Source: Breznakia blatticola (GTDB lineage: Bacteria > Bacillota_I > Bacilli_A > Erysipelotrichales > Erysipelotrichaceae). From it: a stretch of 32,000 nucleotides of DNA. Each line of letters starts with the position of its first letter. The first letter of the stretch is position 1. The notes beneath the pieces are model-generated. The model did no database searches. It saw nothing but the letters and a program-made list of their open reading frames with translations, and was not told where the DNA came from. Positions 2,230 to 28,700 of this stretch are shown here, piece after piece. The stretch is taken from contig NZ_SODD01000017.1 of assembly GCF_004365815.1 (NCBI RefSeq), forward strand, positions 11,354 to 43,353. The letters are read 5' to 3'. The position numbers and the translations under genes were made by a program.

Positions 2230-4860
2230 ATGAGATTACAACAGATCAAAGAACATACCATGATTTTAGCACCATCCTATTTACACAAACAATTACGTAG
2301 TGATTTACTCAAGCAGACAAATGGCTTAGCAAACGTAAGTATTATGAGTGTGGATACGTATCTAGCAAGTTTACTAAGGAATAACTATGATGCATATCCA
2401 TATCAATGTTACTTAGCGATGCAAGATTTAGCACTTACGTATTTTGCGGGTGTAAAAGATAATACCGACTTCATAAACGAAGTCGTTCAATTTGTGGATG
2501 ATGTAAATTTCTATGGTATAGATGCAAATCAATTAAAAGAAAGTGATGTCTATTTAAAAGAATTGAAAGACATTGTTTTTAACTTGCTAACAATACCAAG
2601 TGCAAGCAAGGAACAACGGGAACGATTGTATGCTCTTGATGATGCATCAAATATCGTAATTATCGATGACTTTGCAAATGAAAGACATCGATACATTTAT
2701 GATGTACTCCAACAAAAAGGAGCAACACATATTGCCCCAAATCTTGTTCAACCAAACAAGGAATTTTACTATGTCTTAAATAAGAAAGAAGAATGTGAAG
2801 CTGTGGCACGTTATATCATTGGACATGATATTGATGTGAGTAAAGCAAAAATGACATTGTTAGATACATCGTATCAACCATTTATTGAACAGATATTTGA
2901 TCGTTACCATATTCCGTATTCATTTCAAAGTTTACGTAAGAAAAATCGTATGATTTTTTCATTCACGAGTTTACTTGCGTATTATCTACAACCAGATAGT
3001 GAACATTTAGCTGCCTTATTTGAAACAGAGGTTTTTGTTCATCCAAAGGCACAAGCATTTGTAAATTATGTGCAAAGCTTTCAGTGTACACTTGAGGATA
3101 GTTTTACACGCATGGAAGATCATGTTGATGCTGCTCACAATACCATTGATGCAAATACGCGCGAAGCATTCAAAAAATTGGAACTTGATGCACGTGAAGT
3201 AAAAACTGAAGTATATGAGAAGCTAAAATATTTACTATCATGTTTTTTGCAAGAAGCAATTGTATACATTGAACAACTTGTGGTAGATAATAGTAGTTTT
3301 ACAAGTATTGAAGATGTGCAAACCATTCGTCAAATTCGTAAAGAAATTAAAATTAGCTACACCTATATAAATGAAAAAACAATTTCGTTATTTATTGAGC
3401 GCTTAGAAGCATTGCAACTCAAGCAATCCAAAGAAATGTTAGGCTTACAAATTGGTGAACTTACACAGCCGACAAAAGAGATGGACTACCATTTTGTACT
3501 AGGTGCTACGGCCAATCATTTTCCTGGATTTGTTGCTAAGAGTGGCTTGTTTTCAGAAAACTATATTAAACATACCGACTATCCAAGTTTAGAAAGTCGT
3601 TATGAATTTCATGTACAACAAGCAATCGATTCTTTACAGACAAGTCAAAATCTTATCGTATTTTATGCAACCAGTGGACTTGATGGAAAGGTTCAACAAC
3701 CTTCACTAGAAATAGAAACACTGATGCAACAACAAGCAAAACCATATCCATTACCATTTGCATATCAAATGTATCAAGTTGATACAAACTTACAACCAAC
3801 ATATGCAAAAGCATTATTTCAAAAAGATGGAATGTATATGGGTTCAGTATCCGCTTTTGAAATGTATGCAAACTGTCCATATAAGTATTTCTTGCGTCAT
3901 GGTTTAAAAATCTATGAAGAAGCAAAAAATCCATTAGATAACTCAACGACAGGTACACTCATGCACTATATTTATGAGTCGCTTACTTCACAAATGGGAA
4001 AAAACTATGCTAGTGCATCATGTGCAGAAGTTGCGCATTTGATAGCTAGAGAAAGTAAAGCACTTGCAGATGTATATGTGCAAAATGCAAAACAACTACA
4101 AATGAGTCAAGAACGCTTATTACAATCCCTTATGCAAAACCTGGCATATTTAGAAATGTTTGAAGAAACAAGTCATTTAGTACCCACTGCTTTTGAGTAT
4201 GAATTTTATGCAACCATTCCAACAACTCACGCAAACGTAAAATTGCATGGATATATTGACCGTTTGGATATGAACCGCGATTTTGTAAGTGTCATTGACT
4301 ATAAAAGTAGTGCAAAGAAACTAGATTTAAAAGAAGTACGTAAAGGTATGAAACTTCAACTTCCTACATACTTATATGTGGCACATCATGAATTCCAACG
4401 TCGTCCAGTTGGTGCATACTACTATAGCTTACAAAATGGAAAACAAGCTGCATACTATGCAAAGATGAACCGAGGAAAACTAATCGAACAAAGCGAAGAA
4501 GGTCGTAAGCAAAACTTTGAGAAAACAAAGAAATTATCTGGTTGGACCACATCTACAGATTTCCAAGTGATGGATCAGGATGAACGTTTTATTGATGGCA
4601 TTGCAAGAAAGAAAGATGGAAGTTTTAGTGCATCAACAAAGATTTATAATATTGAGGCAGTTGAAACCTTATTAAAAGCAAATTTAGAACGAATTGTGGA
4701 CAACTTAATGCAAGCCAATATTCGCATTGAACCAGTTAGTTGTGCATACTGTAAATATCAAGATATTTGTCATAACCGCAAAGATGGATATGAAAGAGAT
4801 ATGTTAGATGTCGATCAAGATATCTACTTAGTTGGAAAGTTAAAGGAGGAAAGTCAGTGA
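2230..4860 (+). CDS. addB: Helicase-nuclease complex subunit B (AddB/RexB type, no Walker A)
   Basis: C-terminal PD-(D/E)XK nuclease motif (GYIDRLD ... VIDYKSS) and Fe-S Cys set (ANCPYKYF ... CAYCKYQDIC) typical of AddB. No GxxxxGK[ST] anywhere in the N-terminus, as in RexB of lactic acid bacteria. The stop overlaps the addA GTG start (GTGA). The start is uncertain (ATG 2230 or ATG 2260) and neither has an SD. Confidence 0.8.
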   Translation: MRLQQIKEHTMILAPSYLHKQLRSDLLKQTNGLANVSIMSVDTYLASLLRNNYDAYPYQCYLAMQDLALTYFAGVKDNTDFINEVVQFVDDVNFYGIDANQLKESDVYLKELKDIVFNLLTIPSASKEQRERLYALDDASNIVIIDDFANERHRYIYDVLQQKGATHIAPNLVQPNKEFYYVLNKKEECEAVARYIIGHDIDVSKAKMTLLDTSYQPFIEQIFDRYHIPYSFQSLRKKNRMIFSFTSLLAYYLQPDSEHLAALFETEVFVHPKAQAFVNYVQSFQCTLEDSFTRMEDHVDAAHNTIDANTREAFKKLELDAREVKTEVYEKLKYLLSCFLQEAIVYIEQLVVDNSSFTSIEDVQTIRQIRKEIKISYTYINEKTISLFIERLEALQLKQSKEMLGLQIGELTQPTKEMDYHFVLGATANHFPGFVAKSGLFSENYIKHTDYPSLESRYEFHVQQAIDSLQTSQNLIVFYATSGLDGKVQQPSLEIETLMQQQAKPYPLPFAYQMYQVDTNLQPTYAKALFQKDGMYMGSVSAFEMYANCPYKYFLRHGLKIYEEAKNPLDNSTTGTLMHYIYESLTSQMGKNYASASCAEVAHLIARESKALADVYVQNAKQLQMSQERLLQSLMQNLAYLEMFEETSHLVPTAFEYEFYATIPTTHANVKLHGYIDRLDMNRDFVSVIDYKSSAKKLDLKEVRKGMKLQLPTYLYVAHHEFQRRPVGAYYYSLQNGKQAAYYAKMNRGKLIEQSEEGRKQNFEKTKKLSGWTTSTDFQVMDQDERFIDGIARKKDGSFSASTKIYNIEAVETLLKANLERIVDNLMQANIRIEPVSCAYCKYQDICHNRKDGYERDMLDVDQDIYLVGKLKEESQ

Positions 4861-7800
4861 GTCTAAATCAAGAACAACAACGTGCAGTTGCTGCTAGAAA
4901 TACGAATATTCTTGTATCTGCAAGTGCTGGTGCTGGAAAAACAAAAGTTTTGATTGAACGACTCATGTCTTTAATCACACAAGATAAAGTAGAAGTTAGT
5001 GAAATACTTGCTATGACTTTTACAGAAGCGGCAGCAGCAGAGATGAAAAAGCGACTTGCAGCATCTCTATCAAGTACGTACGAACAAACAAAGGATCCAT
5101 TTCTAAAAGCGCAACTGGCAAATTTAGAAAGTGCAAACATCTCAACAATTCATGGATTTTGTTTGCGTATTTTAAAAGAATATTACTACATGATTGATCT
5201 ACCTAAAAAACGTGTCAATCATCCATTAGATGAACAACAAGCAAGTATGCTAAAAACAAATGCACTAGAAAGTGTACTAGCATATGCCTACCAACAACCA
5301 TGGTTTCCAAGCTTCGTGGAAGTTTTTAGTGATCGACCAGAATCATTAGGAACTTTGGAAGCATCCATCAATCAATATGCAAATGTGGTAAATGCAAAAG
5401 CAGATCCACAAGCATATATAAAACACTGTATGGATTACTACAAACCTATTGATACAATTGCACAGTTACCTAAAGATATTCAACACTATTTCTTTCAAGG
5501 AATCGAACTAGAACTAGATGTACTTATTGATGCACTAACACAAGTAGAATTTGAATATAGTGATGAAAGTAATCTTGTAAAAGAAGAACGTTACCAGAAA
5601 GCAAAGGCTGCCATTCTTGCACGTGATTATGAAAGTTATCGTGCAGTATTAAAAGCAACGGTGCAACTAAAAAGTCCAGCCAAAACCAAAAGTGCATATT
5701 ATACGACAATTGCAGAAGTGGAAGATCGTTTACTGCAACAAGCATTTAGTGAAAAAGAGTATGTGAGTTTCCATAATGCAAATGTTGAAGTAATGCATCA
5801 CTTTATTGAGTTAACCCAAATGTTTCTTGCGCATTATGAAAAAGAAAAGCAAGAATACGAGTGTATTGATTTCTCGGATATGGAACACTATGCAATTGCT
5901 ATACTACAAGCAAAAGGTGGGCATGTCGCAAATCTTTTAAAGCAACAGTTTAAAACGATCATGGTAGATGAATTCCAAGATAGTAATGATGTTCAAGATA
6001 CACTAATTAAACTCATTGCGAAAGAGGATAATGTCTTCCGTGTTGGTGATATTAAACAATCTATTTATGGATTTCGTAATGCTTCACCAGAAATTATGAA
6101 AGGCTTTATCGATACACCTGATGCAAAAAATGAAGTGATTTTCTTTAAGTACAATTATCGTAGTAAAGAAAGTATTGTAGAGTTTACCAATCAATACTTC
6201 AAGGCACTGATGAATATTGAAGGACTTTCTTCATCTTATGAAAGTGATGATGTTGTTAGTGTGGGTCGTGACCAACAAAAGGAAAATAATGTACCTGTGC
6301 AAATTCACATTATTGATAAGAACTTAAAGAAATCAGATGCATGGGCAGAAACACCAAATGATTTAACGACTTCATATATTGCTAATCAAATTCTAAAAAT
6401 AAAAGCAGAAAAAGGATATGCATTTAAAGACTTCGCGATTTTAGTTCGTGGCAATGCTAAAATGAAAAGCATTAACGAAGAATTAAGTGAACTAGGAATT
6501 CCATGTTTTTATGCAAATGCAGAAGACTTCTATAAAAATGTAAGTATTACATCCGTTATTTCTTTTGTTAAGGCGTTGGTGAATATGCATGATGATCATA
6601 ATTTTATTGCTTTATGTACATCTTGTTTCTATCAAATTCCTGCAAATGATCTAGCAAAAGCAAAACTAGAAAAAGCTGAAGATAGTAGTTATGCAACGTA
6701 TTTTGAAAATGATGAACGACTTGCATCTTTCTATGAATTACGTGAACACATTTACAAACAACCTGTTTCAAAAGTGATGAAAAGCATCTATGATATTAAC
6801 GATTTCTATATGTCGTATACGACGTTACAAGATAAAGCAAACTTGGATTTACTTTATGAAATTGTATGTCAGAAAGAACAAGAAGAGGCAATGGGAATTC
6901 AGGGCTTCTTACGTTATATTGAGCAAGTACAAAATCTAAAAGTACCAGAAGCATTTCCATTAGGTGAAGGAGATGATGTCGTTCGTTTGATGACGATACA
7001 TAAATCCAAAGGATTGGAATTTAAAGTTGTCTTCTTAGTAAGCTCACAAAACAAGAATGCACAATCCAATTTTCTAGCAACAGATGATGAACTTGGAATT
7101 GCAGTTGACTATGTGGATGCCAAAAACTATCAGATTTATAATGATATTAGTAAAATTGCAATTAAGAATAAACAGTATCTTAATTCACTTGAAGAAGAAC
7201 TACGTGTTTTGTATGTTGCTATTACGCGAGCGGAGTGTGAGATGCATGTTGTAGGAACGGGAAATGAAACCGAAATACTTGATGCAAACTTCCAGAACTT
7301 CTACAATACCAAAGGGTTTATATGGTGGATGCGTATGGGGTTACATGATGTTGATGCATCGTTATACCACATTGAGTATGTTGATGAAGTGTGGACAAAT
7401 CAAACACAAGAAACAAAGAAAATGGAATACACGCAAACATATTACGATAAACAAGCAAGTGAAGTTGTATTTGCTTCACCAAGTGATAGTGAAACATTTG
7501 TGCAAAAACCACAGCCATTCTCTTTACAAGAGGATGTCGGCTTTGAAAGAGGGAGCAATCTTCACCGTATGGTAGAAGTCTTACCTAATACAACTTGGGA
7601 TGATGCATTGCTAACACAAGTAGCAAATGCAGAAGCGATTACATTGCATGCACATGATATGCAAGTCTTACAAAAACTACAAAATGAGCAGTTGTATCAG
7701 CAAGCATCAAGTTTTCATGAAGTGTATCATGAGTTTGCATTTATGGTTAAAGATGATCAAGAAATCATGCATGGATATATGGATTATCTTGCAATTGATG

Positions 7801-15454: not shown

Positions 15455-15479
15455 CCAACCTTTTGGACTTTAAAAAGTC
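15455..15479 (+). promoter_or_regulatory. ECF-like promoter motif, site 1 (upstream of the sigma gene)
   Basis: CCAACCTTTTggactttaaaaAGTC. It has the same 9-mer and the same spacing as the sites at 16810 and 19463, and lies 34 nt before the ATG at 15513. Confidence 0.4.
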
Positions 15480-15512
15480 TTACGTATATGATGTGTGAAT
15501 GAGGAGTTTTAA

Positions 15513-16808
15513 ATGAACAAACGGATAGATGTAACTTATGTGCGAAAGTTACAAGAAGGAGACCTTACTGCCTTGGAGGAAATATATCGTTTTTACCAAG
15601 GGCCAATATATTATTATGCACTTTCAATTTTGAAAAATAAGCACGATGCAGAAGAAGTTATGCAGGAAGTGGTGTATAAAGTGCAAACAAGAATTCATCA
15701 ATTAAAGAATCCAGAGTCTTTTCATTTCTGGATGTTTTCTATTGCATCAAATGAATGTACTTCACGGTTGCGTGTACGTAAGCGATTCATCCAAACCGAT
15801 GAAGAAAACACACTTGAAGAGGTGATAAAAGCAAAAAATAACCAAATTAATGATTTTAATAATTCGACACTAATGGGTGCAATATTAAATTCATTTCAAA
15901 AATTAAGTGAGAATAATCGAAGGACAGCTGAACTACGTTACTTGAGTGGACTAACTTTAGAAGAAATCGCAAAAGCAACACATGTGGAAACGAAAACTGT
16001 AAAGAGTAGGTTGTATGAAGTACGAAAGATGGTCTCAAGTGACTTGAAAGAGCAAGGTTATCATCCACGTAAATATTTTACATTTTTGGGGATTCCACTG
16101 TTTTATAAGGAAATGCAGTTAACTTTTCTTAAAGAGCGAAATAAAGTTCTATTAAAGGACTATTCGTCAATGCAAACATTGATGCAAATTATCACTAATG
16201 CAGAAAAGATTAGTCTATTTTTAAGTTGTGCAATTGCATCGGTAGTAATAACTCCCGTAATACCAGCAATAGTTAACGTTCCAACAAATGATTTGATTGT
16301 ACTTCCTGCAACTGCATCAAACATTCAGTATAAAAAGTCTGATCGTATAGGTGTTATTGATACAATCTCATATATTCAAAATCCAATTGCTGGTCCTTTA
16401 GAAGTACGGGTGTATGTATACGATATGTCAAAAATAGAAAATATCTCTATTACTTATGAAGGTATTGAATGTAACTATCAAAAATATGAGACTTATGTAG
16501 GTATAAACGTTGTTAAAAATGGAAGATATCACGTACGAATAAATAATGATGAAAAGTTTTTTGACGTAACAAATATTGATTATGATATTCCGATTGTTGA
16601 AAGATTGGATTTTTATGATGATTCATTTGAAATCGTTGTTAAGGTAACTGTGAATCAAGTAGATGTTGAGAAGTCGTATCTATTGATTGATCAACAAAGA
16701 GTATCGTTTCCAAAAGATTTTATTGTGTCTGTGAAAGATGCAGAAAATGTCGATGTGATCTTAGTTGATGATAAAGGAAATGAAAATTGCTTTAATTTTA
16801 AAAAATAA
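15513..16808 (+). CDS. ECF-type sigma-70 family factor fused to a TM helix and a ~175-aa extracytoplasmic C-terminal domain
   Basis: Region 2 (DAEEVMQEVVYKVQTRIHQLKNPESFHFWMFSIASNECTSRLRVRKR) and region 4 (RRTAELRYLSGLTLEEIAKATHVETKTVKSRLYEVRKMV) with no region 3. One hydrophobic helix ISLFLSCAIASVVITPVIPAIV (16209-16274), then a beta-rich domain of unknown family. SD GAGGAG is 6 nt before the ATG. Confidence 0.8.
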   Translation: MNKRIDVTYVRKLQEGDLTALEEIYRFYQGPIYYYALSILKNKHDAEEVMQEVVYKVQTRIHQLKNPESFHFWMFSIASNECTSRLRVRKRFIQTDEENTLEEVIKAKNNQINDFNNSTLMGAILNSFQKLSENNRRTAELRYLSGLTLEEIAKATHVETKTVKSRLYEVRKMVSSDLKEQGYHPRKYFTFLGIPLFYKEMQLTFLKERNKVLLKDYSSMQTLMQIITNAEKISLFLSCAIASVVITPVIPAIVNVPTNDLIVLPATASNIQYKKSDRIGVIDTISYIQNPIAGPLEVRVYVYDMSKIENISITYEGIECNYQKYETYVGINVVKNGRYHVRINNDEKFFDVTNIDYDIPIVERLDFYDDSFEIVVKVTVNQVDVEKSYLLIDQQRVSFPKDFIVSVKDAENVDVILVDDKGNENCFNFKK

Positions 16809-16809
16809 A

Positions 16810-16834
16810 CCAACCTTTAAAAGGTAAGTGCGTC
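16810..16834 (+). promoter_or_regulatory. ECF-like promoter motif, site 2 (upstream of the surface-protein gene)
   Basis: CCAACCTTTAaaaggtaagtgCGTC, i.e. AAC-N16-CGTC, the textbook ECF -35/-10 geometry. It starts 2 nt after the sigma gene stop. Confidence 0.5.
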
Positions 16835-16936
16835 GTACTGGTAAGGATATATATGTGTGAGGAGGTAGCAATGATCAAGAGAAGAAAAGTGTAAATGTTT
16901 TAACAAAAGTTATGTGTGAAAATAAAGGAGGAAACT

Positions 16937-19363
16937 ATGTTAAAAAGAAATAAAAAATTTTTAGTTTTATTAATAGCAGTTATGTTTATTACAAGTACTG
17001 GTTTTACTGATGAAGTACAACCAAACGAAATCAATGAACCAATTGAAGATGAACAAACGACTTACGAAGAGAAAGTATTAGAAGATGAAAAAGAAGACAC
17101 CAATGTATTTATAGTAGATGAAGAAAATACAACGCAAGAAGACGTTGTAGAAAAAAGTATGAATAATTTGACTCGTGCTACTGATGAAAGAGTCATATAT
17201 GCACAAGATAATATTGGAGTTGAATGGATATTGTATGCTGATGGAGAATTGGTTATCCATGGTGGTACCATCAATATCATTACAGATTCAAGCAAACGAT
17301 ACTTCAAACAATATTCAGATATTATCACCTCTATTACCTTCGCTGGAGATGTATACTATACACGCCCAGATGGAGGACTTGGTAACTATATGTTTGCTGA
17401 CTTAAAAAACTTAGTAACTGTGAATAATTTTGATCGATTTAAATTAAGTGGAGATGCATCTGGATTATTTATAGCGTGTGAAAAGTTGAAAAATATCGAT
17501 ACAACAAATTTTGCCACTGACAATATTACAAATTTTACAATGATGTTTTCCTATTGTGAGTCACTTGAGTATATAAATGTAAGTAATTGGAATGTAGATA
17601 ACGTAACATCTATGTGGTCAATGTTTAGTCATTGCTATTCATTAAGAGAAATCGATATATCACAATGGACGTTTAAAAATGCAACTGATATTTCCTATGT
17701 GTTTTATAGATGTCGAGAATTGTTAGAACTTGATTTTTCTAGTATGGATCCAGTTAATGAAGTCACTAAGGAAAAGATGCTTGGTAGTGAGCTAGCAAGC
17801 TCAATGAGAAACAAACTGCGTAAAATAACACTTGGTAAAACCGCACTAGGTGCTAATACAGATATATATGCCAGAGATTGGAGAGAACTTGATACAGGCA
17901 TCGTTCATTCGGCTAAATTTTTGGATACACACGATACAAGTAAAACAATTACCTATATTTGGGATGCGAAGCATGCAGTTTTCTATAATCCAGCAGGTGG
18001 AACATTGACTGGTCCTGCAAAAGAGGAAGTTGATGTTATAGAAAGTTCATTTACTAAACCAACAGACCCAACACATGAGCATGCTACATTTGTAAGATGG
18101 TTTACTTCAAGATGGGATTATGATAAAAAAGAGCTTATTTATGAAGAATGGGACTATAGTAGTATTCCAGTTCTAAACATGCCTTATACTACTGAAGTGT
18201 ATGCAGAGTGGGACTACGATACTTATAAAATTTCATATGAATTAAATGGTGGAACGATTAGTCAATTATATCCAACAGAATACAAGTATAATACAGAAGT
18301 ACGGGGATTTAACACTCCATCTAAGGAGGGATATTTCTTCCTTGGATGGTATGATGCAAATGAGGGTGGTAACAAAGTAACTTCGATTAGTTCAACAGAA
18401 TTTGGTGATAAAAAACTATATGCACGTTGGTCTCCTAGAATGTATCAAATAACTTATGAACTAGATGGCGGAACAAACCACGACTCAAATCCAAGTTCAT
18501 ATGCATACGATACAGGTGTGAGCAAACTTGAAAATCCAACGAAAGAAGGATATACATTCATTGGATGGTTTGATGATGTAAATGAAGGTAATCAAATTAC
18601 AAGCATCGATAAAAAGTCAAAAGAACATGTAACGATTTATGCACGCTGGATGGCAAATCAATATGCAATCATTTATGAGCTAAATGGTGGAATTAATGAT
18701 ACAAATAATCCGACTTCATATGCTTACGAACTAGGGGTAGACACATTTGAAGAGCCGACAAAATATGGACATACTTTTTTGGGATGGTATGATGCACCTG
18801 AAAAAGGTAATCAAATCACAAATATAGCGAAAGATTCTATTGGTCATAAAACACTATATGCAAAATGGAAAGTAAATGATTACAAGGTAAACTATGAGTT
18901 AGATGGTGGAATAAACTCCCTTGATAATCCAATGCAATATACATACGGTATTGGAGTGAGTGAATTTGAAAAACCGAATAAAGAAGATTACACATTTATT
19001 GGTTGGTTTAATGCAGCAGAAGATGGAAAAGAGATTACTAATATTGATGGTTCAACTGCTGAAGATGTAACATTATATGCACGTTGGAAAAAGAACGAGA
19101 AACCTACACCTCCTAGTGAAGAACCATCAAAACCTATTGAAAAACCAAATGACGATAAAAACAGTAATACAAATATAACCGATACAAATAATGACAAAGC
19201 AAATGTGAATGCAAGTGTAGCTCCTACTTTTAGCGGAACACAAGCAAACGCACAAACTCCGGTTGATACAAGTGATAGTGTGAATCGAGATGCTCTATTA
19301 TATGTTGGTATAATTTCGTTGTTATCGATTGTAGTTTTATTAAAAAGAAAACATTCAATTTAA
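16937..19363 (+). CDS. Cell-surface protein: signal peptide, BspA-type LRR (DUF285-like) region, five Listeria-Bacteroides (InlB B-repeat/Flg_new) repeats, Pro/Asn/Lys-rich stalk, C-terminal TM anchor
   Basis: The start was moved to ATG 16937 (MLKRNKKFLVLLIAVMF...), preceded by AAGGAGG at 16925-16931. The track's GTG 16916 lies in the leader. LRR units have the form W-N/T-v-x-N-v-T-x-M-x-x-MF-x-x-C-x-x-L. Repeats have the form Y-x-I-x-YELNGG...NP..Y.Y...........P.K.GY.F.GW.......G..IT.I........LYA.W. C-terminus is ALLYVGIISLLSIVVLLKRKHSI. Confidence 0.85.
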   Translation: MLKRNKKFLVLLIAVMFITSTGFTDEVQPNEINEPIEDEQTTYEEKVLEDEKEDTNVFIVDEENTTQEDVVEKSMNNLTRATDERVIYAQDNIGVEWILYADGELVIHGGTINIITDSSKRYFKQYSDIITSITFAGDVYYTRPDGGLGNYMFADLKNLVTVNNFDRFKLSGDASGLFIACEKLKNIDTTNFATDNITNFTMMFSYCESLEYINVSNWNVDNVTSMWSMFSHCYSLREIDISQWTFKNATDISYVFYRCRELLELDFSSMDPVNEVTKEKMLGSELASSMRNKLRKITLGKTALGANTDIYARDWRELDTGIVHSAKFLDTHDTSKTITYIWDAKHAVFYNPAGGTLTGPAKEEVDVIESSFTKPTDPTHEHATFVRWFTSRWDYDKKELIYEEWDYSSIPVLNMPYTTEVYAEWDYDTYKISYELNGGTISQLYPTEYKYNTEVRGFNTPSKEGYFFLGWYDANEGGNKVTSISSTEFGDKKLYARWSPRMYQITYELDGGTNHDSNPSSYAYDTGVSKLENPTKEGYTFIGWFDDVNEGNQITSIDKKSKEHVTIYARWMANQYAIIYELNGGINDTNNPTSYAYELGVDTFEEPTKYGHTFLGWYDAPEKGNQITNIAKDSIGHKTLYAKWKVNDYKVNYELDGGINSLDNPMQYTYGIGVSEFEKPNKEDYTFIGWFNAAEDGKEITNIDGSTAEDVTLYARWKKNEKPTPPSEEPSKPIEKPNDDKNSNTNITDTNNDKANVNASVAPTFSGTQANAQTPVDTSDSVNRDALLYVGIISLLSIVVLLKRKHSI
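17975..19087 (+). repeat. In-frame tandem coding repeats, 219-bp period (73 aa): one divergent plus four canonical units
   Basis: The conserved terminal Trp codons fall at 18209, 18428, 18647, 18866 and 19085, exactly 219 bp apart. The units are diverged at DNA level, so this is not a recent duplication. Confidence 0.85.
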
Positions 19364-19371
19364 TGACTAAG

Positions 19372-19403
19372 GACTTTGTAGTAAATACTATGAAGTCTTT
19401 TTT
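19372..19403 (+). terminator. Rho-independent terminator after the surface-protein gene
   Basis: Stem GACTTTGTAGTA / TACTATGAAGTC (two G-U pairs) followed by T6. Confidence 0.7.
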
Positions 19404-19462: not shown

Positions 19463-19487
19463 CCAACCTTTTTCAAATATATGCATC
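19463..19487 (+). promoter_or_regulatory. ECF-like promoter motif, site 3 (upstream of the orphan structured locus)
   Basis: CCAACCTTTTtcaaatatatgCATC, with the same 9-mer and spacing as sites 1 and 2. It lies downstream of the terminator at 19372-19403, with no annotated ORF behind it for ~230 nt. Confidence 0.35.
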
Positions 19488-19653
19488 TAATTAATAGAAG
19501 GTAATTAGATTATTATTCTTCTTAGGATAGCCTATGTCCTACAAACTTCCTTATAAAACACACACATAAACACACAAACGGAAAAACACTAGGCGGGTAT
19601 TTTATACCAAGTACAATTGAGGGATTGTACACTACTTACTATTTAGGTAAGTA

Positions 19654-19693
19654 AAAAGGTCAACTTTGCATGTATATGTTAAGTTGACCTTTT
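19654..19693. terminator. Strong orphan hairpin (terminator or attenuator) in intergenic DNA
   Basis: Perfect 13-bp stem AAAAGGTCAACTT / AAGTTGACCTTTT with a 14-nt loop. The A4/T4 flanks are part of the stem, so the U-tract is short in either direction. Confidence 0.6.
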
Positions 19694-19728
19694 CCATTAT
19701 AAGATGGTTATAAACGGAGTTGATGTTT

Positions 19729-20199
19729 GTGAAATCCCTATGGCATTCAGCATACAAAGATGGTAGTATTTTAGTAACGGAATTATCGTTCATGCTATGG
19801 CGGAAAGGCGAGGGGATAATGAGTAAGTATCAAGATGAAAAACTAGGGAATCAATTCTTGGGACAACTGAAAGACTTAAAAGATATTCATAATTATCATG
19901 AGTATGTTGATTTTGTGCGTCATTATATTGAGTACATTTGGGGAGGAAATACAAAGTTATTGGATACCAATCCATTTGGTGTAACATTATTAGCTACACA
20001 TGAAGAATATGATGAAACGATTGCAGTTGTGGTGTTGTATCAAAGTAGTGATGTTGCATATGAGCAAATTATGAGTGCTCTTGAGGGACAAGCATATATG
20101 CAAACCAACAGTTTAAGTGTGATTAGTAATCAGTCGATGGATGCGGCTGCTAAAACACTAGCAGAAGATCATTCCATCCTATATTTTAAATTCTCGTAA
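19729..20199 (+). CDS. Hypothetical small protein with degenerate Mrr-like (restriction-endonuclease-fold) sequence pattern
   Basis: Open frame 19720-20199. Plausible starts are GTG 19729 (GGAG 9 nt upstream) or ATG 19819 (MSKYQDEK...). Family assignment is by eye only; see findings. Confidence 0.5.
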   Translation: MKSLWHSAYKDGSILVTELSFMLWRKGEGIMSKYQDEKLGNQFLGQLKDLKDIHNYHEYVDFVRHYIEYIWGGNTKLLDTNPFGVTLLATHEEYDETIAVVVLYQSSDVAYEQIMSALEGQAYMQTNSLSVISNQSMDAAAKTLAEDHSILYFKFS

Positions 20200-27911: not shown

Positions 27912-28700
27912 TTACACGATAGACTTTAATTGTTTAACTGTAGTTGAAGTTCCTGCTATTTGATTGATATCTTCTAGTAAAACTTGCAACTTTTTTTGAT
28001 TTCCAATTTCTTTAGCAACTGGTAGATATTCCAAAAAGTATAGTGCTGCTTCACGGTTGTTCATCTGTGATAATTGCACTTGTTTAAAAGAACTATTACT
28101 TTTCTTCATATCATTCATAAGACGATAATATACGCCATCAATGAAATCCCAAGAGTACATTGGTTTTACAACTTGCTTCTTTTTGGTTTTCATTTGTTGT
28201 AGTTGTTTTAATTTTTTATAGTGTTGCTTTGCTTGCGTTTTATTTGCTAATCGATAGTTTGAATAAAATGCTGTAAATTCATATACAAGTTTTGCATCAA
28301 AACTTGTATGATAACTATCTTTATGTGTTTCTAGATAATCTAAGTTTGCTTGAAAATTACCCGTATCAATATTATAAAGGGTATCGTACGTTAAGTCTAA
28401 ATCTTTATATTGTTTAAATATATCAAATCGTACGAGTTTTTGTTTATAGGCATTTGCTTTTTCTGGTTGTAAGTCATAAGCAAGAGAGAGAATCATCTTT
28501 CGATGGAGTGTTTTTACATATTCTCCCAAACAAGCAATAGCCAGAAATACAATGGCAATAACTGCAAATATGATCTTTGCAGTCACATCTTTAGTATTCA
28601 CAATAATGTTGATACTATAGATTGCAAAGATGATAAAGATAATATATGTCAGAATGGTTTTTGTTTTATCAGAAAAACTCTGTAGTTTGAAAAATTTCAT
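27912..28700 (-). CDS. Hypothetical membrane protein (2 N-terminal TM helices plus a ~190-aa helical K/Q/Y-rich domain)
   Basis: TM1 ILTYIIFIIFAIYSINIIV, TM2 IIFAVIAIVFLAIACLG. SD GAGG is 7 nt upstream of the ATG, and a consensus promoter lies upstream. The stop is 20 nt before the DeoR start. I recognise no family. Confidence 0.6.
   Translation of the reverse strand: MKFFKLQSFSDKTKTILTYIIFIIFAIYSINIIVNTKDVTAKIIFAVIAIVFLAIACLGEYVKTLHRKMILSLAYDLQPEKANAYKQKLVRFDIFKQYKDLDLTYDTLYNIDTGNFQANLDYLETHKDSYHTSFDAKLVYEFTAFYSNYRLANKTQAKQHYKKLKQLQQMKTKKKQVVKPMYSWDFIDGVYYRLMNDMKKSNSSFKQVQLSQMNNREAALYFLEYLPVAKEIGNQKKLQVLLEDINQIAGTSTTVKQLKSIV

Follow-up and report, generated by a model that had tools for sequence, protein, structure and literature searches.

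That an extracytoplasmic function (ECF) sigma factor can carry a fused regulatory extension which spans the membrane is already known from IutY and from the groups ECF48, ECF52 and ECF53 (PMC8999054, PMC5411451). IutY of Pseudomonas putida (group ECF243) is a sigma/anti-sigma hybrid of cell-surface signalling, which is cut by Prc and then by RseP (PMC5411451, PMC8999054). For ECF48/52/53, activation by proteolysis was predicted and partly shown for SCO4117 (PMC8999054, PMC5826349). Here, a gene of this kind is described for Breznakia blatticola. It lies in a stretch of 32,000 nucleotides of contig NZ_SODD01000017.1, hereafter called the window, and all coordinates refer to the window unless another locus is named. 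The gene (15513-16808, + strand) has an ATG start and codes for a membrane-anchored ECF sigma/anti-sigma-like protein of 431 amino acids (aa).

Starting from what was observed, i.e., protein architecture, family, split homologue, neighbouring genes and promoter-like motifs, we favour with moderate confidence the reading that it is an autoregulated fusion of sigma and anti-sigma factor, which is released by regulated proteolysis and transcribes its own and the adjoining adhesin gene. In this mechanism a cytoplasmic ECF sigma factor (aa 1 to ~182) would form one chain with a part homologous to its membrane anti-sigma factor. At rest, the sigma domain would stay bound to the membrane, where the juxtamembrane helix would probably mask it as well. 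When the ectodomain receives a signal, a site-1 cut outside the membrane and then intramembrane cleavage by a protease of the site-2 (S2P) type would follow, and the freed sigma domain would bring RNA polymerase to promoters of the AAC...(C)GTC type. Such promoters would drive its own gene, giving positive autoregulation, and the adjoining gene for a sortase-anchored, BspA/internalin-like adhesin with leucine-rich repeats (LRR). Several of these sigma-adhesin cassettes are present per genome.

The window protein resembles IutY in that one polypeptide runs from an N-terminal ECF sigma factor in the cytoplasm through a single transmembrane (TM) helix to an extracytoplasmic domain at the C-terminus, and both have relatives which are split into separate sigma and anti-sigma genes. 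However, IutY is a Gram-negative protein that controls siderophore uptake, and the signal reaches its periplasmic, FecR-type anti-sigma domain via a TonB-dependent outer-membrane receptor, whereas the window protein comes from the Gram-positive-type Erysipelotrichales, has a tandem immunoglobulin (Ig)-like ectodomain without FecR similarity and is encoded next to LRR adhesins. The actinobacterial ECF48/52/53 proteins likewise consist of an ECF sigma factor and a fused C-terminal extension with TM helices and an extracytoplasmic domain, and for them, too, a one-component mode of action with proteolysis as the activating step has been proposed (PMC8999054, PMC5826349). Their extensions carry a ZAS-type zinc-finger anti-sigma domain, to which ECF52 adds a Pro-rich region and a carbohydrate-binding domain, whereas the window protein is without a Cys/His motif in its segment of ~50 aa, has another ectodomain and belongs to another phylum.

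Architecture and family of the fused sigma factor

The reading frame of the fusion gene is continuous and uninterrupted, and a Shine-Dalgarno sequence (GAGGAG) is located at 15501-15506. Using Pfam, sigma region 2 was identified at aa 25-91 (15585-15785, + strand; Sigma70_r2, E = 6e-11, 42.4 bits at a cutoff of 24) and region 4.2 at aa 123-172 (15879-16028, + strand; Sigma70_r4_2, E = 1.2e-7, 31.7 bits at a cutoff of 25.7), with a Sigma70_ECF match spanning aa 10-178. The linker between both regions (aa 91-117) is short and disordered in the AlphaFold2 model. Neither Sigma70_r3 nor a region 1 family was matched at E ≤ 0.1, and no Pfam match at all was obtained past aa 186. The OmpR-type winged helix Trans_reg_C was not matched in the protein either; its cytoplasmic module is a sigma factor. 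Among the NCBIfam models only the generic sigma70-ECF superfamily model TIGR02937 was passed (81.4 bits, cutoff 42.9); the models for SigM, SigV, SigW, SigX, SigY and SigZ all stayed far under their cutoffs, and no equivalog or subfamily model was passed.

Across the family, A46, Q51, L64, F70, W73, L141, E151 and I152 are near-invariant, and the N-terminal half of the model superposes on SigW, sigmaE, AlgU and CnrH (Foldseek against PDB). Since the positions of regions 2 and 4 are this well kept and the model superposes on known ECF sigma factors, the sigma core looks functional. The best superpositions were obtained with sigma factors bound to their anti-sigma factors (SigW-RsiW, CnrH-CnrY); this is maybe a compact default state of AlphaFold and was not used as evidence.

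An N-terminal domain which only mimics a sigma factor, like the sigma-like domain of PhyR, would make the protein a membrane regulator that titrates another factor. We regard this as very improbable. Weak Pfam matches to PhyR_sigma-like do occur in two family members, but Sigma70_r2 and Sigma70_r4_2 are passed by every full-length member, the positions typical of core binding and of -10/-35 recognition are near-invariant, and the sigma and neighbouring genes are preceded, at the spacing one would expect, by ECF-type AAC/CGTC motifs. A receiver domain or a NepR-like partner was not seen in the loci examined.

The sigma core is followed by a cytoplasmic stretch of ~50 aa leading to the TM helix. 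In this juxtamembrane segment (aa 176-232; 16038-16208, + strand) the conserved motif DLKxQGYxPxKYxS comes first, and a helix is predicted at aa 193-211. The single TM helix (aa 233-254; 16209-16274, + strand) carries prolines at aa 248 and 251, the first of them invariant across six close relatives. It is the sole hydrophobic segment of the protein, the Kyte-Doolittle mean over 19 residues peaking at 2.31 (aa 236-254), and it is found at the identical alignment position in six of six close homologues. AlphaFold2 placed the TM helix at aa 218-246 with a shallow alignment (full length, 6 sequences) and at aa 220-253 with a deeper one (aa 176-431, 34 sequences). Of the 77 full-length family members, 64 have a hydrophobic segment with a value above 1.6, and the segments of the remainder are rich in Gly, Ala and Ser, with values of 1.2-1.6. 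The charges flanking the helix in the family indicate an N-in/C-out topology with the sigma domain on the cytoplasmic side (K+R 1.95 on the N side vs. 0.87 on the C side, D+E 0.56 vs. 2.12).

Outside the membrane, an extracellular stalk of low confidence (aa 255-277; 16275-16343, + strand) is disordered, with a predicted local distance difference test score (pLDDT) below 50 in both models, and its sequence is unconserved. The AxA-like motif ATA/S in this region (aa 266-269) was considered as a signal-peptidase site and dropped, as it is not conserved in close relatives.

The ectodomain itself (aa 278-431; 16344-16805, + strand) is predicted to form two beta-sandwich domains resembling Ig and fibronectin type III (FnIII) folds (aa ~282-352 and 361-430, pLDDT 93-98 with the 34-sequence alignment), with the conserved motif NIDxxxP at their junction. 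NGxY and (K)SY are further conserved motifs, and the near-invariant positions are N336, G337, Y339, I355, D356, P360 and S388. No Pfam family, including Big_13 and Big_7, was matched in the ectodomain of the window protein or of the 77 members, no NCBIfam model for this tandem Ig-like domain was found, and a profile of the C-terminal part gave no sequence match in PDB (best E 0.43). Foldseek against PDB returned generic tandem Ig/FnIII matches only (best E 9e-5, TM-scores 0.2-0.33), such as cytokine receptors, the Fn3 modules of CbhA from C. thermocellum, titin and NCAM. Weak matches of the C-terminal profile (E 4e-6 to 1e-3) are giant surface proteins rich in Big_13/Big_7 Ig-like repeats, which agrees with the predicted Ig-like fold.

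With regard to base composition, the G+C content falls to 0.30 at 16001-17000, compared to a window average of ~0.34-0.35, and the GC skew is strongly positive there (0.27). This stretch extends over the 3′ half of the fusion gene into the beginning of the adhesin gene, and the drop may reflect the coding of a low-complexity ectodomain or a horizontal origin of the cassette.

A word-indexed search yielded only five full-length relatives, from Breznakia blatticola, metagenomes and Erysipelotrichaceae bacterium MTC7, which share 36-44% identity and are colinear end to end. The family was defined by searching 1.84 billion cluster representatives with full HMMER and a profile of the part behind region 4 only. 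At E < 1e-3 this gave 103 proteins, with 82 below E = 1e-10, and 77 of them are 395-480 aa long and carry the match at their C-terminus. Sigma70_r2 and Sigma70_r4_2 are present in 77 of 77, and a Pfam family in the extension in none of them. The shorter matches are mostly fragments, and some are complete proteins, among them P0091 described below. Named members come from Breznakia blatticola, B. pachnodae, unclassified Breznakia, Thomasclavelia sp., a metagenome-assembled genome of Coprobacillaceae and Erysipelotrichaceae MTC7. All of these belong to the Erysipelotrichales, a taxonomic range which is based on the names attached to the sequence clusters, and their annotation reads merely 'RNA polymerase sigma factor'. 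A word-indexed search with the 34-sequence C-terminal alignment found two proteins only and added nothing, and a search for related loci with the alignment behind region 4 led to the MTC7 locus only, which was already in the set. Judged by these searches, the family comprises ~100 sequence clusters, restricted to Erysipelotrichales among the named members, with several paralogues per genome. B. blatticola carries at least four paralogues, one of which (P0003, 464 aa) is probably located on the same contig outside the window.

The family also decides on whether the fusion could be an artefact of one genome, in which a frameshift, a lost stop codon or a misassembly joined a sigma and an anti-sigma gene. 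In favour of this it can be said that the split arrangement exists in another lineage. But the frame is continuous, the junction motif QGYxPxKYxS is conserved, and the same fused architecture and length recur in 77 independent cluster representatives from many samples. Because all of these relatives were found via their C-terminal part and nevertheless carry both sigma domains, the fusion is no product of chance or assembly, and the profile search together with the domain scan refutes the artefact, to which we assign next to no probability.

An earlier note, made from the DNA letters alone, had described the open reading frame (ORF) as a complete ECF sigma factor followed by a linker, a single hydrophobic helix at aa 233-254 and beta-rich sequence that could be placed in no family. 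This description holds throughout: both sigma domains are passed in Pfam, the helix is seen in the hydrophobicity, the charge bias and the AlphaFold2 model, and the beta-rich part is predicted to form two beta-sandwiches without a sequence match in Pfam, NCBIfam or PDB. The frameshift or assembly fusion that the note had kept in mind is contradicted by the architecture of the 77 relatives.

Promoter-like motifs and the adjoining adhesin gene

The gene following the fusion gene encodes a surface protein with a signal peptide, and no separate anti-sigma gene was found 3′ of the fusion gene, in agreement with what the first reading of the sequence had stated. This likely target gene (16937-19363, + strand; likely start ATG 16937, Shine-Dalgarno AAGGAGG) codes for a secreted, cell-wall-sorted protein of 808 aa. 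In Pfam it matches Flg_new (E = 4e-60, five repeats) and, as repeats of the BspA type, DUF285 (E = 4.9e-16) and LRR_5 (E = 2.1e-6). The signal peptide is located at the N-terminus, and the C-terminus ends in a sorting signal consisting of VDTSD, a TM helix and KRKHSI. Between the two genes no terminator-like site was detected, and the two-gene cassette is closed by a terminator-like hairpin with a T-run (19369-19400, + strand). The fusion protein probably switches on this adjoining gene.

Three promoter-like sites were identified on the + strand. P1 (15440-15490) consists of an A/T-rich tract, a -35-like CCAACC (15455-15460) and a -10-like AGTCTTAC (15476-15483), and its -35-like element at 15455 is located 58 nt ahead of the ATG of the sigma gene. 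P2 (16795-16845) comprises CCAACC at 16810-16815 as -35-like and CGTCGTAC at 16831-16838 as -10-like element and lies right after the stop codon of the sigma gene, ahead of the adhesin gene. P3 (19448-19498) has CCAACC at 19463-19468 and a weaker -10-like CATCTAAT at 19484-19491; it lies beyond the adhesin terminator, and its target is uncertain. All sites share the exact 9-mer CCAACCTTT, which occurs three times in the window compared to 0.23 expected copies, a number that none of 100 shuffles reached. The three copies are all on the + strand, intergenic and within 4 kb, and they are followed at a fixed offset by GTCTTAC (P1), GTCGTAC (P2) and ATCTAAT (P3). P1 and P2 thus have CCAACC, 15 nt and (A/C)GTC in common, and P2 reads AAC-N16-CGTC. 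The arrangement AAC-N16-CGTC is the typical geometry of Bacillus ECF promoters. From these elements we infer a promoter function of P1 and P2.

Comparable sites were found at related loci. Sites of L004 (four), L010 (two) and L006 align with those of the window, the common pattern being an A/T-tract, TCCAAC(C/A)TTT, N12 and CGTCTTA(C/T). In other loci the pairs differ: L001 contains TCAAACT...ATCTAAC twice, L008 has CCAGAAAA-N14-CGTCTTA twice, and in L012 CGAACC...GTnTAnAT stands ahead of both sigma genes. L015 has AGAACG-N16-CGTCATA ahead of the operon DUF1307-P0083-S26-sigma and ahead of a gene for a 518-aa protein, and L013, where the system is split, shows TGAAC...TCTAAT three times. These ECF-type motif pairs, each specific for its locus, are consistent with autoregulation and with control of the neighbouring genes.

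Several features of the leaders were observed besides. The sequence ATGTGTGA occurs three times in the window (15491-15498, 16853-16860 and 16912-16919), a count which is not unusual given 2.5 expected copies; all copies are located in short leaders, 3′ of the promoter-like sites and 5′ of the Shine-Dalgarno sequence, and GTGTG-rich leaders are also present in L001 and L004. The leader of ~90 nt between P2 and the adhesin gene includes a mini-ORF of seven codons (16871-16894, MIKRRKV∗) with a strong Shine-Dalgarno sequence (GAGGAGG), which could be a leader peptide or arise by chance. P3 is followed first by a CA-rich tract (19556-19580), then by a hairpin of 13 bp (19655-19697) and an ORF (19720 or 19819 to 20199) without a family match; this region is perhaps a leader or small RNA. 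No Rfam matches were obtained in the window.

The pairing with a surface protein recurs at related loci. In nine of nine loci with a readable downstream gene, the window and eight others, a large protein with a signal peptide is encoded 3′ of the fusion. Six of the nine proteins contain LRR or DUF285 repeats (BspA/internalin-like), and most have an LPXTG-like sorting signal. The downstream proteins carry DUF285/LRR_5 and Flg_new in L001, Flg_new_2 in L004, LRR_5 in L006 and LRR_8 in L008. L010 has genes for a protein of 390 aa, a protein with LRR_4 and Bact_surface_Ig-like, and a giant of 5054 aa. In L011 the protein has 525 aa with the sorting signal VKTGD, and in L015 it is the 518-aa protein. 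In L012, two cassettes of sigma fusion and LRR protein are arranged in tandem on one contig (4061-11422); a serpin gene lies just upstream of them.

The sorting signal of these surface proteins is non-canonical and LPXTG-like, with [VI][DPK]T[GSN]D, a TM helix and a K/R tail. It was seen in the window (19240-19363) and in L001, L004, L006, L008, L011, L012, L013 and L015, and in the Breznakia clade a conserved 'AP.[FY].G' is located ~10 residues ahead of it. This suggests a lineage-specific sortase signal in the surface proteins encoded next to the sigma genes.

In Clostridium (Acetivibrio) thermocellum, multiple SigI/RsgI modules of sigma factor and membrane sensor occur, each located beside genes for a particular extracellular protein that it presumably controls. 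The window family is similar, as multiple paralogous modules are present per genome and each adjoins the gene for a particular extracellular protein. However, SigI is not of the ECF type, and RsgI is encoded as a protein of its own, in which an RsgI_N domain is combined with carbohydrate-binding ectodomains that vary, whereas in the window family sigma factor and sensor are fused and one ectodomain fold is common to all paralogues.

The strict one-to-one pairing of fusion and adhesin gene, which includes both tandem cassettes of L012, also agrees with a different role of the ectodomain. Instead of receiving an external ligand, it might monitor its cognate surface protein or the sorting and secretion pathway, as a feedback or quality control of adhesin display in which the ectodomain of each paralogue is matched to its own neighbouring LRR protein. 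Several paralogues exist per genome, and among close paralogues the sigma core is kept at 50-65% identity, whereas the ectodomain, which diverges faster, has 27-40%. LRR proteins commonly bind Ig-like domains, and InlB-MET and SALM5-PTPdelta are among the fold matches; in addition, the operon of L015 contains an ectodomain-only paralogue, P0083. All of this is circumstantial, though, and the proteins encoded downstream are a mixed group (with LRR_5/DUF285, with LRR_4, with Flg_new alone, or without any Pfam family). The conserved NGxY, NIDxxxP and SY look structural, unlike residues that bind a ligand. We consider such monitoring a rather unlikely alternative.

Apart from the cassette, the window is ordinary chromosome. 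On its upstream side the fusion gene is neighboured by a divergent gene for a malic enzyme, and AddAB-like nuclease/helicase, ATP-binding cassette transporter, fumarate hydratase, P-type ATPase and phosphotransferase system genes are located around it. A 262-aa ORF (27912-28700, - strand) between a DeoR regulator gene and a gene of the metallo-beta-lactamase fold matches no Pfam family at E ≤ 1e-5.

Split homologue and mode of action

A split version of the system was identified in L013. A standalone ECF sigma gene (3426-3992, 188 aa) is followed after 8 nt by the gene for P0091 (4001-4768), a protein of 255 aa which consists of an N-terminus of ~62 aa, a TM helix and an ectodomain as in the fusions (E = 4.8e-9 against the C-terminal profile) and is present on 12 contigs. 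Concatenated, this sigma factor and P0091 are colinear with the fusion proteins. The junction of the pair ('...MEGG∗' / 'MPKHISV...') aligns onto QGYxPxKYxS, the motif conserved in the fusions, and the juxtamembrane segment of the fusion is homologous to the cytoplasmic N-terminus of P0091. The split homologue therefore shows that the extension of the fusion has its homologue in a protein encoded at the +1 position, which is the classical place of an anti-sigma factor. The split relative documents a gene fusion or fission. Further downstream, L013 encodes a sorted protein of 546 aa and a pilus-adhesin-like protein with VWA and GBS104-like_Ig domains.

The earlier note had taken the protein for a sensor and sigma factor in one polypeptide and had proposed to look for co-occurrence with BspA/Flg_new surface proteins. 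Such a co-occurrence is seen at the loci described above, and together with the split pair of sigma factor and TM-ectodomain protein it strengthens that interpretation.

Concerning a release by proteolysis, the sequences offer hints. P, G or N is found inside the TM segment of 65 of the 77 members, the close clade has its invariant proline, and in one subfamily an S26 signal-peptidase gene is located directly upstream of the fusion gene (L011 of Thomasclavelia, 5396-5944; L015/L016). In L015 (4001-5228), the S26 gene is preceded by the gene for P0083, which has a TM helix and the tandem Ig domains but no sigma domain, and DUF1307 (lipoprotein-like), P0083, S26 and the sigma fusion form an apparent operon behind a GAAC-N17-CGTC motif.

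In Bacillus, the anti-sigma factor RsiV is cleaved by signal peptidase at site 1 and by RasP at site 2. SigV/RsiV and other Bacillus pairs resemble the window family as ECF sigma factors of Firmicutes with single-pass anti-sigma factors that carry an extracellular sensor, and with autoregulated promoters of the AAC/CGT(C) type, to which the promoter-like motifs of the window family would correspond; the S26 genes which adjoin the fusion genes in L011 and L015 add to this likeness. The Bacillus pairs, in contrast, are separate polypeptides, and the ectodomain families of RsiV were not detected in the window protein or the 77 members.

Several points weigh against the favoured sigma/anti-sigma fusion with proteolytic release. 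The juxtamembrane part is short (~50 aa) and holds no recognised anti-sigma domain: in aa 176-260 no such domain (ZAS zinc finger, FecR_N, RskA or similar), nor any other family, was matched in Pfam, either for the window protein at E ≤ 0.1 or for the 77 members at E ≤ 0.001, and the segment contains no Cys, no HxxxCxxC and no Cys/His zinc motif. Masking of the sigma domain by such a segment is plausible, and a short helix resembling class-II anti-sigma factors is possible. P, G and N are common in TM helices and not specific to S2P substrates, and the S26 gene could serve adhesin or pilus assembly instead. P3 has a poor -10 element with ATC in place of GTC. A two-block position-weight matrix built from ten sites (window, L004, L006 and L010) scored no higher than in shuffled sequence when applied to the held-out loci L001, L008, L009, L011 and L012, and a single promoter model for the whole family was rejected for this reason. 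An unbiased, ungapped identity scan over 30 nt, a method with a high background in AT-rich DNA, was significant for L004, L010 and L001 only and not for the window, and the regular expression for the motif was devised only once the sites were known. Because of the matrix, the scan and this order of events, the claim made here is limited to locus-specific motif pairs. More generally, sigma activity, regulon, signal and proteolytic release are all things that we infer.

The same lack of a recognisable anti-sigma domain between sigma region 4 and the membrane agrees with a sigma factor that stays active while tethered. As in ToxR, CadC and TcpP, which are likewise single chains with a DNA-targeting domain in the cytoplasm, linked by one TM helix to a sensor domain outside, RNA polymerase would be recruited to the membrane for the adjoining adhesin gene, transcription, translation and secretion would be coupled, and the ectodomain would exert its control via conformation or oligomerisation instead of cleavage. 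The targets seem to be adjoining genes only, with the three sites of the window close together, they encode secreted proteins, and tandem Ig/FnIII ectodomains are typical of receptors which signal by dimerisation. However, ToxR, CadC and TcpP act tethered through an OmpR-type winged helix, whereas the window protein is a sigma factor that needs core RNA polymerase. A tether of ~50 aa would leave little room for a complex of holoenzyme and promoter at the membrane, and from the split pair of sigma factor and TM protein it follows that the membrane part has a free sigma factor as its target, which is the logic of an anti-sigma factor. IutY, the only experimentally characterised sigma/anti-sigma fusion, needs proteolytic release (PMC5411451), and the partial data for SCO4117 (ECF52) point to proteolysis as well (PMC8999054). 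On balance, a sigma factor acting in the tethered state is unlikely; if true, it would be new for sigma factors.

A combination of tethering with recognition of the adhesin can also be imagined, in which the Ig ectodomain of a tethered sigma factor binds its own LRR adhesin or the host ligand of that adhesin and RNA polymerase is brought to the membrane-proximal adhesin gene. We give this quite a low probability. If true, the adhesin would be transcribed, translated and exported where its engagement is sensed, and each genome would contain private, orthogonal circuits of sensor, sigma factor and adhesin.

Meaning for the Erysipelotrichales

We found no published description of a sigma-fusion family from Firmicutes or Erysipelotrichia which combines the tandem Ig-like ectodomain that no model covers, the lack of a recognisable anti-sigma domain, the strict pairing with sortase-anchored LRR adhesins and the presence of multiple cassettes per genome. 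This combination appears to be new, and the family may belong to an existing but uncharacterised ECF group number.

The promoter-like motifs seem to differ between loci, so that the fusions are possibly orthogonal switches; compact and gated by the membrane, they might be useful as such in synthetic biology. The ectodomain represents a previously unnamed tandem Ig-like sensor domain in Firmicutes (Erysipelotrichales) of the insect and mammalian gut. With their matching promoter-like motifs, the sigma-adhesin cassettes provide a concrete model of how surface adhesins would be controlled in these poorly studied gut bacteria.

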